From assembly GCA_003345555.1 (NCBI GenBank), contig PRDJ01000066.1, positions 1 to 19,218 on the forward strand: a DNA stretch of 19,218 nucleotides, read 5' to 3'. The position numbers and the translations under genes were made by a program. The notes beneath the pieces are model-generated. The model saw nothing but the letters and a program-made list of their open reading frames with translations, did not search any database and was not told where the DNA came from. Below are positions 14,821 to 18,713 of this stretch, piece after piece. The stretch's first letter is position 1. Every line of letters begins with the position of its first letter. This DNA is from Candidatus Thorarchaeota archaeon. Its GTDB lineage: Archaea; Asgardarchaeota; Thorarchaeia; Thorarchaeales; Thorarchaeaceae.

Positions 14821-16152
14821 CTACTTGAGATTGTGCTTCTTTACGAAGTCGGTGAGTACATCAGTGAGGTCTGGCTTGCCGATTTCCTGAAGATCGTACC
14901 TCACTCTTGTGCTTGGCTTGCTGATTCTCAGCAGATGTGTGAGGTCTATTGGAGTGCCGACCACAATGGAGTCAACGTCTGACTTGTTGATTGTTTCCTC
15001 GAGTTCCTGCATTTGCTTCTTACCGTAGCCCATAGCGGGCAACACTTCTCTGACATGTGTGTATTTCTGGAAAGTGTCTCGGATGCTTCCCACGGCAAAC
15101 GGTCTTGGGTCAACGATTGTTCCTCCGTGTTTGCGTGCGGCAATGTAAGCTGCGCCATAGGGCATACCACCATGTGTGACTGTAGGACCATCTTCGATAG
15201 CTATTACTCTCTTTCCTCGGATGACGGAGGCATCTCCGACAGTCAACGGTGAAGCAGCATCTATGATAATCGCACGCGGGTTAGTCTTGGTAATATTCTC
15301 TCTTACCTTCTCGACATTATCGTAGTTGGCCGTGTCTATCTTGTTTATGATCACAACATCGGCCATTCTGAGGTTTGTCTCACCCGGGTAGTAACCGACT
15401 TCATGGCCGGGCCTGTGTGGGTCTGTGATTACAATGTGCAGATCCGGTTTGTAGAATGGGAAGTCATTGTTGCCACCGTCCCAAGTAATAACGTCCGCTT
15501 CCTTTTGCGCCATCTCCAGAATCTTGCCATAGTCAACGCCAGCATAGAGAATAACACCGGCATTAATCATAGGTTCATACTCCTCGCGCTCTTCAATGGT
15601 GCAGTTGTAGCGGTCCATGTCTTCAAGACGAGCATATCGCTGGGCAATCTGAGTTCTCAAGTCAGGATCATATGGCATGGGGTGTCTCACGTTGACGGGC
15701 TTGAGTCCCATCTGTACAAGCAGCGAATTGACTCTTCTTGAAGTCTGACTCTTCCCGCAACCTGTCCTCACGGCACAGACTGCGATTACTGGCTTAGTAC
15801 TCTTCAGCATAGTCGTCGTCGGACCCATAAGACGCATATCTGGACCCGATGAGTTGACCAAGGCTATCTTGTGACCAACTGTATCATATGGCAAGTCCGA
15901 GTATGCTAGAATGCATTGTTGCACGTCGAACTTCTTTATCAACTCAGGCAGTTTCTGTTCGGGGTATATCTTGATGCCCTTTGGATACAGCTTTCCCGCC
16001 AGCTCCGGGGGATAGATTCTGTCTTCAATTCCTGGTATCTGTTCTGCGGTGAAGGCCACAACCTCGTACTGTTCGTTGTCTCTGAAGTGGACATTGAAGT
16101 TGTGAAAGTCGCGGCCTGCTGCTCCCATGATTATGACTTTGATCCTGCTCAT
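14821..16152 (-). CDS. COG2403 P-loop NTPase (often annotated cyclic 2,3-diphosphoglycerate synthase-like); probable arginine synthetase (ArcE) family
   Basis: GAAGRDFHNFN, YPPELAG, Walker A AVRTGCGKSQT, RHPMPY, WDGGNND, and EDGPTVTHGGM. Confidence 0.8.
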   Translation of the reverse strand: MSRIKVIIMGAAGRDFHNFNVHFRDNEQYEVVAFTAEQIPGIEDRIYPPELAGKLYPKGIKIYPEQKLPELIKKFDVQQCILAYSDLPYDTVGHKIALVNSSGPDMRLMGPTTTMLKSTKPVIAVCAVRTGCGKSQTSRRVNSLLVQMGLKPVNVRHPMPYDPDLRTQIAQRYARLEDMDRYNCTIEEREEYEPMINAGVILYAGVDYGKILEMAQKEADVITWDGGNNDFPFYKPDLHIVITDPHRPGHEVGYYPGETNLRMADVVIINKIDTANYDNVEKVRENITKTNPRAIIIDAASPLTVGDASVIRGKRVIAIEDGPTVTHGGMPYGAAYIAARKHGGTIVDPRPFAVGSIRDTFQKYTHVREVLPAMGYGKKQMQELEETINKSDVDSIVVGTPIDLTHLLRISKPSTRVRYDLQEIGKPDLTDVLTDFVKKHNLK

Positions 16153-16200
16153 TCTGTATGCCGCCCTTCATACTTTGAAGTGGTCGCGGGTGGGGCGCTT

Positions 16201-16232
16201 TTGACGACGTAATAAACTATCGGTGTCGTCAA
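16201..16232. promoter_or_regulatory. Perfect 8-bp inverted repeat (putative operator) flanking an AT-rich TATA-like spacer
   Basis: TTGACGAC (16201-16208), a 16-nt spacer, then GTCGTCAA (16225-16232). The spacer reads TTTATTA on the minus strand. Confidence 0.45.
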
Positions 16233-16461
16233 CAGACCATTCGTCTGCGCCGCAGGGGTTGAGATAGAGACCCGACGGTTTGATTGCGCAAACGAGGTCC
16301 TTCCTTAGATGAAACCTTTCGAAAAAACGAGTGGTTGGTTTCTAGAAAACCCATTCGCAAAATCGCAACATACAACACAAACACCTAAATACAACCTGAG
16401 GTGTACAGCAAGAAGAGCTGGTCCGAGGAGATACTGCCGCCGCTGACCTAGGGGTGAAACG

Positions 16462-17013
16462 TTGAAGCTCGTTGAGTTGGCCCAGAAGTCCATTGAGCTC
16501 ATCGAGGAAGCAGGAACCCAAGGTATTCGAAGCGACGTGCTCGCCAGCATGCTTCAGAGCCCCAAGAGAAGAGTGTATGACATAGTTGCTATTCTCAAGG
16601 CCCTAGGTCTTGTTACGACCAAGCGCAAGTCCGATGGTACGACTCTTATGTGGGTTGATCGCTCTGTCGAGTTTGTCCAACGTTCCGAATATGAAGCGTT
16701 GAAGACCCGTCTCAGCGATGCCACACTGACAAAGAACCAGCTACAGGTCGAGGTTGCAGAGCTCAAGGAACAGCTTCGCCTGACGAGGCTCAAGATCCCC
16801 CGGGAATCCCAAACCGTCGGCACTGTTCGCAAGACAGAGTTCGAGACGACTCAATTGAGAGTGAGACCGACATCTAGACTAGGATTCAAGAAAGTCACTG
16901 ACTCCGGAATGGAAGTCATAATCGAAACGCACGATCCCGGAATGACAGTTGACCCGTCAGAGGAATTGGTTGACAAAGTCGAGACTCTGATAAGAAACCT
17001 TGAACGGACTTAG
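16462..17013 (+). CDS. E2F/DP-like winged-helix transcription factor with coiled coil
   Basis: KLVELAQKSIELI...LASMLQSPKRRVYDIVAILKALGLV...LMWV, then a heptad repeat at residues 77-105. SD-like GGGGTGA at 16451-16457 precedes the TTG. Confidence 0.8.
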   Translation: MKLVELAQKSIELIEEAGTQGIRSDVLASMLQSPKRRVYDIVAILKALGLVTTKRKSDGTTLMWVDRSVEFVQRSEYEALKTRLSDATLTKNQLQVEVAELKEQLRLTRLKIPRESQTVGTVRKTEFETTQLRVRPTSRLGFKKVTDSGMEVIIETHDPGMTVDPSEELVDKVETLIRNLERT

Positions 17014-17082
17014 AAGACTTGATGCACACTAAAGGACGATAGGCTTGTCGGTGCCAGTCTTCACTGGGTACGATTCGACCGT

Positions 17083-17484
17083 TTATCGCTTCGGCTGACT
17101 TGCAGAGCGGACAGTGACTCTAGCTCCTCGTCTCAGCCCGGCCAGTCTCTCAAGGGCGTCCTTGCCCGAAGTTATTCTACCGACGATATTGACTCGGCCA
17201 GCAGTATGCATATCCTTCAGATAGATGTCGAGAGAGTCTCCTAATGGGTTGTAAGCTAAGTCGCCCTGCTTGACTTCCGTGGATGCTTTCAGATTCCCGG
17301 CTTTCAAACCAAGAGTAATCTTCACTTGTCCAGCTATAACTGCAGCCTTCCCAGCGATTGGAAGGCGGTACTTGATCTCCTCTATGATTAGAGGACCAAG
17401 GATTCGATCAAGGACACCAGTCAGAACCAATCCCCCTTCGAACTCAAGTTCAATGGGCAGTTCGCTCTCACTCATCGGACTCAC
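17083..17484 (-). CDS. Cyclophilin-like fold protein (TM1367/AF2241 type); start may be ATG 17475
   Basis: EEIKYRLPIAG, EVKQGDLAYNPLGDSLDIY, and VNIVGRI. Confidence 0.8.
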   Translation of the reverse strand: MSPMSESELPIELEFEGGLVLTGVLDRILGPLIIEEIKYRLPIAGKAAVIAGQVKITLGLKAGNLKASTEVKQGDLAYNPLGDSLDIYLKDMHTAGRVNIVGRITSGKDALERLAGLRRGARVTVRSASQPKR

Positions 17485-17585
17485 GGCGGCAGTCCTTGAG
17501 CTTCGGGCTTAAAATGTGCTCCGGCGCTATTTGCTGCAAATCCTTAATTGTGGTTGGCCTTGAAACGTACCCGGAGTGAATCGGG

Positions 17586-18713
17586 CTGGTAGAAACGATT
17601 CTCGAAATCGCCTTTGTTGTTGACACCACCGGGTCGATGAAGGACGATATAGAAGCAGTTCGAGACAATCTTTTCCGAATAGTGGACCGTGTTGCCGAAA
17701 GGACAAAGGGACTTCACATCCGGTTCGGTATTGTTTCCTATCGTGATCACCCACCACAGGATCGTACGTATGTCACACGTGTCTTCGATTTCACTGACAA
17801 GATTAAGGCCGTTCACCGGGAAATTTCAGATTTGAGTCCGTCCGAAGGTGGAGACGTCCCGGAAGCAGTGGCTGATGGCCTTTATGATGCACGTACTAAG
17901 CTATCTTGGCAAAAGGATTCGTACAAGGCCCTCCTCTTGATTGGTGATGCGCCTCCTCATGGAAGAAACTACAACATGCTCGCAGATGATTACTTCCCCG
18001 AAGGGTGTCCCGATGGGCATGACCCTCGTTCAGAGGTTCAGACCCTGAAGAGACTTTATGGCAACACGATGTTCATTTTCGTATGTGGCTGCAACCCCTT
18101 GGTGGAGCAGTCCTTCAGAAGCATCGCTGACTCCGTTGAAGGCGGAAGGTACTATTCTCTCACGGAAGCCCACCAGCTTCCCGAAGCAATTCTCGGCATT
18201 CTTGAGGACATGGGTGAACTAATTGAAGCCGACCGTCGTGTCCTTGCTTACTATATCTCGCACGATGCCGTTTTCGACATAGGCGAAGCAGCCACCGAGC
18301 TCGGGTTGGAACTCAGGGCCATCAAGACATCTCTCTCGAGACTTATAGAGTTGGAACATATTCCGTCTTGGCCGAGCGGACGGCCGCTGACTCAGTCTCA
18401 GACGGGCCTGACCGTTGAACTCGGGAATGTTCCGAGTTCATTAGTGCCGGGCAAGTCTTTTCCATTCAAGATCAAAATACGAAACCCAAGTCTTGCTCAT
18501 GTGGGGATCCGGGTCGTCGCCACGTTAATCACGTCCCAGGGAGTATCAGAGATGATGAATGAGCCGCACGAGATTAGCCCAAGAGCCGATGAGACTATCA
18601 CCATTCCACTTACTCCCATGTCAGACGAAAGGGGCAAGGCCAGTTTGAGAGTGGAGGTCCTTTGTGGATCAAAGACGGCAGCCGTTCGAACTTACCAAAC
18701 CATGGTGATTTAG
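17586..18713 (+). CDS. vWA-domain protein with central HTH and C-terminal Ig-like beta-sandwich; proposed CTG start (ORF track uses ATG 17637)
   Basis: MIDAS motif LEIAFVVDTTGSM lies in frame upstream of ATG 17637. Further motifs are RFGIVSYRDHPPQD, EGGDVPEAVADGL, and LLIGDAPPHG. Confidence 0.85.
   Translation: MVETILEIAFVVDTTGSMKDDIEAVRDNLFRIVDRVAERTKGLHIRFGIVSYRDHPPQDRTYVTRVFDFTDKIKAVHREISDLSPSEGGDVPEAVADGLYDARTKLSWQKDSYKALLLIGDAPPHGRNYNMLADDYFPEGCPDGHDPRSEVQTLKRLYGNTMFIFVCGCNPLVEQSFRSIADSVEGGRYYSLTEAHQLPEAILGILEDMGELIEADRRVLAYYISHDAVFDIGEAATELGLELRAIKTSLSRLIELEHIPSWPSGRPLTQSQTGLTVELGNVPSSLVPGKSFPFKIKIRNPSLAHVGIRVVATLITSQGVSEMMNEPHEISPRADETITIPLTPMSDERGKASLRVEVLCGSKTAAVRTYQTMVI

Follow-up and report, generated by a model that had tools for sequence, protein, structure and literature searches.

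The window analyzed here is 19,218 nucleotides (nt) long and comprises positions 1 to 19,218 of contig PRDJ01000066.1 from a Candidatus Thorarchaeota archaeon. At 16462..17013 on the plus strand, the open reading frame list and its translation give a coding sequence with a TTG start and a TAG stop for an E2F/DP-like protein of 183 amino acids (aa). Its N-terminal part is an E2F/DP-type winged-helix DNA-binding domain (residues 3-64, 16468..16653), placed by Pfam PF02319, AlphaFold2 (AF2), and hhalign, and the recognition-helix motif RRVYD (R36-D40, 16567..16581) can be read directly in the sequence. Behind it lie a long helix predicted to form a parallel coiled coil, or leucine zipper (residues 74-111, 16681..16794; AF2, homodimer model, and hhalign register), a conserved four-stranded beta domain (residues 127-166, 16840..16959; AF2, inter-chain contacts, and alignment), and an amphipathic C-terminal helix (residues 172-182, 16975..17007; AF2 and alignment) seen in Thorarchaeota and some other lineages. 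All of these features are on the plus strand. We read the protein as a small Asgard E2F/DP transcription factor, most likely a parallel homodimer formed through the zipper and the beta domain, and give this reading a probability of about 0.75.

E2F homologues are known to be encoded in Asgard genomes (2024 review, PMC7617429). Eme et al. (2023; Nature 618:992, PMC10307638, Supplementary Information 4.1.5) found E2F/DP homologues across most Asgard groups, with conserved base-contact residues but lacking the regulator-binding domains, and said to lack the dimerization domain as well. On the base-contact residues, the occurrence in many Asgard groups, and the missing regulator-binding domains, our results agree with theirs. 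Their Supplementary file 5 contains the identical protein (Thorarchaeota OWC5, 16462-17013, TTG start, E2F/DP PF02319). A reading of the DNA made earlier from the letters alone, the sequence-only reading, had cautioned that E2F-like domains may already be listed for Asgard archaea, and that caution was justified: the protein is a Thorarchaeota member of the published Asgard E2F/DP homologue family (arCOG02749), and its E2F/DP identity is already known. The new point concerns what follows the winged helix. Where the published description has a DNA-binding domain without a dimerization domain, we find a zipper and a beta domain, and the model of the homodimer passes its controls; contrary to the literature, the C-terminal half is predicted to self-pair.

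Pfam E2F_TDP (PF02319) matched residues 3-57 with an E value of 5.4e-10 and 39.3 bits, passing the gathering cutoff of 25.7, and in a six-frame search of the genome the same gene scored 41.2 bits. This bears out the E2F DNA-binding domain that had been aligned by eye at residues 2-65. The finer points of that alignment can also be read from the sequence: RRVYD is at the positions given above, the terminal Trp (W64) is kept, and Ala stands where the NVL motif of E2F has Asn. Across 37 Thorarchaeota orthologues, P34, K35, R36, R37, Y39, D40, and W64 are invariant. AF2 folds the domain into helices 3-17, 24-31, and 35-48 followed by a wing at 51-64, with predicted local distance difference test (pLDDT) values of 83 to 89. 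By sequence, the nearest solved structures are E2F4 (1cf7_A) and E2F8 (4yo2_A). When a family profile was compared with the PDB, E2F8 was the best match (E value of 4.4e-7), E2F4 had an E value of 0.0034, and no DP chain or chain of the E2F coiled coil-marked box module (CC-MB) appeared among the matches at E values up to 1.

Among 1.84 billion representative proteins, a profile of the 37 orthologues found 89 matches at E values up to 1e-3. They include full-length relatives of 165 to 185 aa from Lokiarchaeota and Baldrarchaeia as well as eukaryotic-type proteins at E values of 1e-7 to 1e-3, for example, a fish E2F3 and a ciliate E2F. All 20 eukaryotic-type matches that were scanned carry E2F_TDP; 10 of them also carry E2F_CC-MB (8 above its cutoff), the other 10 mostly have two tandem E2F_TDP domains, and DP was found in none of the 20. 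Many of the profile-to-E2F alignments run as one stretch over positions ~3 to 108, that is, the winged helix plus the next helix. Consistently, hhalign aligned the family with 19 eukaryotic E2Fs over residues 1-109 (probability, 98.4%; E value, 6e-15), reaching into the coiled coil in register with that of E2F. When the full AF2 model was compared by Foldseek with the Swiss-Prot part of the AlphaFold database, places 1 to 15 were all E2Fs (E values of 6e-5 to 7e-4), with alignments from query residue 1 to between ~119 and 182 and most covering 1-160 or more. The N-terminal domain is thus a genuine E2F/DP-family winged helix and not one of the generic TrmB or MarR type.

Two database proteins have unusual layouts. 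A 451-aa protein from an ENA metagenome contig (P0206) is a eukaryote-type E2F with E2F_TDP and E2F_CC-MB, apparently fused to PDDEXK_9, a PD-(D/E)XK nuclease family; its contig is just 1.8 kb long, and the fusion may be a gene-call artifact. A Thor-like homologue of 257 aa (P0124) has, as called, an N-terminal extension of ~95 residues with two long hydrophobic stretches, which may indicate an E2F-like protein anchored in a membrane or else a wrongly called start.

Conservation is not limited to the winged helix. A sequence search returned 161 homologues, nearly all of them annotated as hypothetical proteins of Thorarchaeota and mostly 183 aa long, and in the alignment of the 37 orthologues, the whole length is conserved, with a mean column identity of 67% and several invariant positions in the C-terminal part too. 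The homologues that carry a lineage name come from Thorarchaeota, Lokiarchaeota, and Baldrarchaeia, as expected of an Asgard-restricted family. In an AF2 monomer computed from an alignment of Thorarchaeota sequences only, residues 74-122 formed a confident helix, but the tail was poor. In a second run, residues 70-183 were modeled with a 58-sequence Asgard alignment to which distant homologues had been added. The mean pLDDT was then 86, helix 74-111 had values above 90 and up to 98, and strands 131-136, 142-147, 152-156, and 161-166 followed by helix 172-182 formed a block with values of 83 to 93, which substantiates the beta-rich tail proposed in the sequence-only reading. In the alignment with distant homologues, the Asgard family has a common layout, with a middle part that varies between the winged helix and a beta domain that is conserved. 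The middle is the coiled coil in the forms of ~160 to 185 aa and is missing from those of 116 to 137 aa; the beta domain is kept in Thor, Loki, Baldr, and Sif homologues, including the short forms without a coiled coil.

The homodimer model of the protein had an ipSAE value of 0.53, compared with 0.00 for the best control. Among proteins with solved structures, 20 of 30 same-chain pairs and 1 of 23 single chains scored that high. Three runs had at least 88% of their contacts in common, with a partner pLDDT of at least 78. The tightest contacts in the model are those of residues 77, 80, 84, 87, 91, 94, 98, 101, 105, and 108 with their own counterparts, and the modeled zipper is therefore parallel and in register. 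The heptad that had been picked out by eye (Y77, L80, L84, A87, K91, L94, V98, L101, and L105) is contained in this series in full, with residue 108 as an addition. Further inter-chain contacts are predicted in the beta domain, between residues 127-136 and 151-161 and from 163 to 163, and between the winged helices, which touch in the model via residues 2-11 and 40-50. The model is a likeness of a pair, not a binding result. With the gene being single copy, it agrees with the probable homodimer of the sequence-only reading, and a minimal homodimeric E2F is supported by the models only. We infer actual dimerization from it, as we infer DNA binding, a target site, and a regulon.

If the model is right, the N-terminal winged helix with its RRxYD motif would read DNA, the leucine zipper of ~38 residues and the four-stranded beta domain would most likely join two chains in a parallel homodimer, and the two recognition helices, one per chain, would read a bipartite DNA site. 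We take the same architecture as that of E2F to be supported. In typical E2Fs (E2F1 to E2F6; 1CF7, 2AZE, and 5TUU), too, an RRxYD winged helix with a terminal Trp is followed at once, at the same spacing, by a coiled coil and then by a small beta-rich region. The Thorarchaeota protein differs from them in that its 183 aa include no N-terminal region, no transactivation domain, and no pocket-protein-binding tail; in the Ala that replaces the Asn of NVL; in a beta domain whose sequence has no detectable resemblance to the marked box; and in that no DP partner was found for it, a homodimer being predicted instead of an E2F-DP heterodimer. The protein ends 17 residues past the beta domain and thus has neither a transactivation nor a pocket-protein (Rb)-binding tail, as had been noted from the letters. 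As no DP-like partner was found in the genome either, any regulation must differ from the eukaryotic Rb-E2F circuit.

DP1 and DP2, which combine E2F_TDP with a DP domain, belong to the same winged-helix family, and the Val in the RRRVYD-type motif resembles DP. However, the Thorarchaeota protein has no match to the Pfam DP domain, and its family profile recovers E2F8 and E2F4, with no DP in the scanned matches. E2F7, E2F8, and DEL have two tandem winged helices and no CC-MB. E2F8 is the best PDB match of the profile, as given above, and two E2F-type winged helices would sit on DNA without DP in both cases. In E2F7 and E2F8, this is achieved by tandem duplication in one chain, whereas the Thorarchaeota protein has a single winged helix and would use a zipper-held homodimer.

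We investigated the distribution of PF02319 in 201 sampled Asgard genomes and found it in 89. It is patchy by family, with 38 of 43, 17 of 19, and 7 of 7 genomes positive in some and 0 of 40 and 0 of 21 in others, and it was found in none of 14 control genomes, among them Haloferax, Methanosarcina, and Sulfolobus. With the protein itself as the query, 40 of 45 genomes from the same Thorarchaeota family were positive. The source assembly of 2.28 Mb is 93% complete, so that a negative result there means not found rather than absent. It has one PF02319 gene. No match was found in it to the DP domain or RB_A, Cyclin_N reached only a subthreshold E value of 0.028, as it also does in control genomes, so that no true cyclin was found, and the one E2F_CC-MB signal elsewhere in the genome (C12; E value of 0.157) was below the cutoff. 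The search for a second paralogue and for Rb- or cyclin-like partners, as proposed earlier, thus yielded none, and the idea of an ancestral cell-cycle regulon found no backing: Rb, DP, and a true cyclin were not found, and the E2F core word was not enriched between genes (see below).

GGCGCC is the textbook E2F core. In other Asgard lineages, it occurred in the 250 nt ahead of the homologous gene at 5 of 19 non-Thor loci (L041, L042, and L055, about -133; L043, -26; L054, -225), compared with ~0.18 expected; the upstream DNA of these loci is AT-rich, with 24 to 34% GC. With close kin dropped, it was present at 3 of 17 loci. The expected number was ~0.15 to 0.18, and a count as high as that observed came up in 0 of 2,000 resamplings. 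Another locus, L051, has an exact TTTGGCGC, a canonical E2F core site, at -52 from the E2F-like gene. Because GGCGCC was picked after the data had been seen, this enrichment is suggestive, not decisive, of a GGCGCC site upstream of non-Thor Asgard E2F-like genes, and it does not apply to Thorarchaeota.

Several observations weigh against a homodimeric E2F-type regulator. Within 250 nt upstream of the Thorarchaeota orthologues, the present gene among them, there is no canonical E2F site (GGCGCC or TTTSGCGC), and GGCGCC is not enriched in the intergenic DNA of the protein's own genome (ratio of 1.02). The Pfam matches of the coiled coil are to generic zippers such as HALZ, YabA, and ZapB, and the coiled coil on its own is only weakly similar to that of E2F (E value of 7e-4; probability, 26%). 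Since E2F-DP complexes have already been solved, the pass of the homodimer model may also partly reflect the model's memory.

A more far-reaching proposal is that the zipper and beta domain are a true homologue, or the ancestral form, of the CC-MB dimerization module and that the eukaryotic E2F-DP heterodimer descends from an Asgard homodimer of the same architecture. In its favor are the shared order of parts, with a winged helix, a zipper directly after it, and a small inter-chain beta domain, together with a set of leads from the C-terminal half. In a Foldseek comparison of the C-terminal model with 350,542 PDB chains, the E2F1 CC-MB (2aze_B) came out on top, and 5tuv_B, 2aze_A, 5tuv_A, and 5tuu_B, four more CC-MB chains, were within the top 21; the top E value of 0.41 was not significant, nor were the other four, and proteasome Rpt subunits (a coiled coil plus an OB fold) ranked beside them. 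The two best matches of residues 68-183 in the Atlas feature search were E2F_CC-MB clusters with a score of 0.75, which is a lead only, and a forced low-stringency hhalign run paired the four strands in the strand order of the marked box. The other comparisons gave nothing specific. Pfam E2F_CC-MB and DP matched neither the protein nor any of 58 family members, so that in the profile check suggested earlier, the E2F_TDP part held and the CC-MB and DP parts did not; the 58 C-terminal halves gave just generic zipper families. hhalign of the beta domain alone with a 15-sequence E2F CC-MB alignment gave P = 0.31, and the beta core scored no better against the marked-box core, globally or locally, than 200 column permutations. 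VIA matches of the C-terminal model to CC-MB chains were not significant, and the wide VIA search returned single-helix matches only, with Z at or below 5; the model had no match in the Swiss-Prot part of the AlphaFold database and retrieved only its own family in the Atlas shape search. For marked-box homology, the profile, hhalign, and permutation tests thus give no detectable sequence signal, and the fold matches to CC-MB chains are suggestive but below significance. The possible marked box of the sequence-only reading is accordingly left with no sequence support and with nonsignificant fold matches. Homology of the beta domain to the eukaryotic marked box is, in our view, doubtful, and the proposal of an ancestral E2F/DP form built on it is tentative to the same degree.

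At the other end, the protein could be a generic archaeal winged helix of the TrmB, MarR, or Lrs14 type that has RRxYD by chance. When the whole model was compared with the PDB by Foldseek, it matched only generic winged helices (MarR, ArsR, and Z-alpha; E values of 2e-3 to 1e-2), and there are subthreshold Pfam or NCBIfam matches to TrmB, HrcA, and Lrs14. However, TrmB scored 13.8 bits against a cutoff of 25.6 (E value of 0.053), eight orders of magnitude behind E2F_TDP, which is above its curated cutoff, so that no better score to TrmB or another generic family emerged; HrcA was also below its cutoff (E value of 0.068), the protein had no MarR match in Pfam, and its NCBIfam scan gave nothing significant. 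The family profile recovers eukaryotic E2Fs, E2Fs were placed above MarR-type proteins in the AlphaFold Swiss-Prot comparison, and PF02319 was found in none of the control genomes, which together make a chance resemblance very improbable. Alternatively, the winged helix may be of E2F type but not belong to an autonomous homodimeric factor, either because it has an unrecognized zipper partner or because the protein is a structural or origin-associated DNA-binding protein. The genome-wide search, which gave no target site, fits this, and some other Asgard genomes have two paralogues, so that heteromers are possible within this phylum. Against this reading stand the single copy in this genome, the homodimer model that passes its controls, and a domain layout typical of a dimeric DNA-binding regulator, and we regard it as unlikely, though less so than a generic winged helix. 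The small Asgard E2F/DP factor acting as a parallel homodimer is the reading that we prefer.

Upstream of the gene, the Thorarchaeota share a promoter-like block. On the plus strand of the window, it contains a conserved element, TTCGCAAAATCGC (16354..16366; family consensus, TCGnAAAATCG), ~20 bp upstream of a TATA-like box, CTAAATA (16385..16391), which follows a conserved AACACAAAC block. The box is conserved in orthologous promoters, and its promoter function is putative. A weaker second copy of the element, CTTTCGAAAAAACG, is at 16317..16330, and several orthologous promoters likewise have two copies ~20 to 40 bp apart. A Shine-Dalgarno-like GGGGTG (16451..16456) lies 5 nt ahead of the TTG start. 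In 30 Thorarchaeota orthologues, the block consists of TCGnAAAATCG, AACACAAAC plus TAAATA, a leader of ~45 nt, and GGGGTG; TCGnAAAATCG is at the same position in ~26 of the 30 promoters, and GGGGTG is kept in nearly all of them, 5 to 8 nt ahead of the start. The start codon in about 30 Thorarchaeota orthologues is GTG or TTG almost throughout, with ATG in one; this steady use of non-ATG starts may point to translation that is kept low or regulated.

TCGnAAAATCG has no other intergenic copy in the genome, so that no regulon can be defined from it. It is a candidate operator specific to the E2F-like gene and is possibly used for autoregulation. The search for a regulon in the protein's own genome gave none, with this element unique and GGCGCC-type words not enriched; GCGCGC and TTGGCGCC were not enriched in intergenic DNA either. 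As a separate observation, the palindrome AAACGTTT is ~6.6-fold overrepresented in the intergenic DNA of the genome, with 12 occurrences compared with 11 in the rest.

Three 151-nt contigs from a wetland metatranscriptome cover 16426..16940 on the plus strand, which includes the leader and the open reading frame, and no contigs from the RNA library were found on the flanks (15800-16425 and 17016-17700). The coverage fits a transcription start shortly past the TATA-like box, near 16412-16426; this evidence for transcription is weak, since DNA carryover in the RNA library is possible.

The neighboring genes encode an ATP-grasp/ArcE-like protein of 443 aa that has a Walker-A site and matches cobW weakly (14821-16152, minus strand), a cyclophilin-like protein (PF04126; 17083-17484, minus strand), and a VWA-domain protein (17637-18713, plus strand). 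The order of the 443-aa gene, the E2F-like gene, the cyclophilin-like gene, and the VWA gene is the same in two other Thorarchaeota contigs. As this is synteny within a family and the orientations are divergent or convergent, we do not read the group as an operon, and a functional link to the neighbors was rejected.

E2F/DP proteins control the G1/S transition in eukaryotes, and their Asgard relatives therefore bear on the origin of cell-cycle transcription. What the analysis adds to the published family is a testable correction: a conserved self-pairing module apparently lies right after the winged helix. If this module is a true relative of CC-MB, the whole core would have existed as an Asgard homodimer before the E2F/DP duplication, and, contrary to the published view, more than the DNA-binding domain would have been inherited. 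If a zipper-held homodimer proves to read a CG-core site that is symmetric, duplication of an Asgard homodimer would explain the E2F-DP heterodimer, and the targets of Asgard E2F proteins could be mapped in vitro even without cultures.
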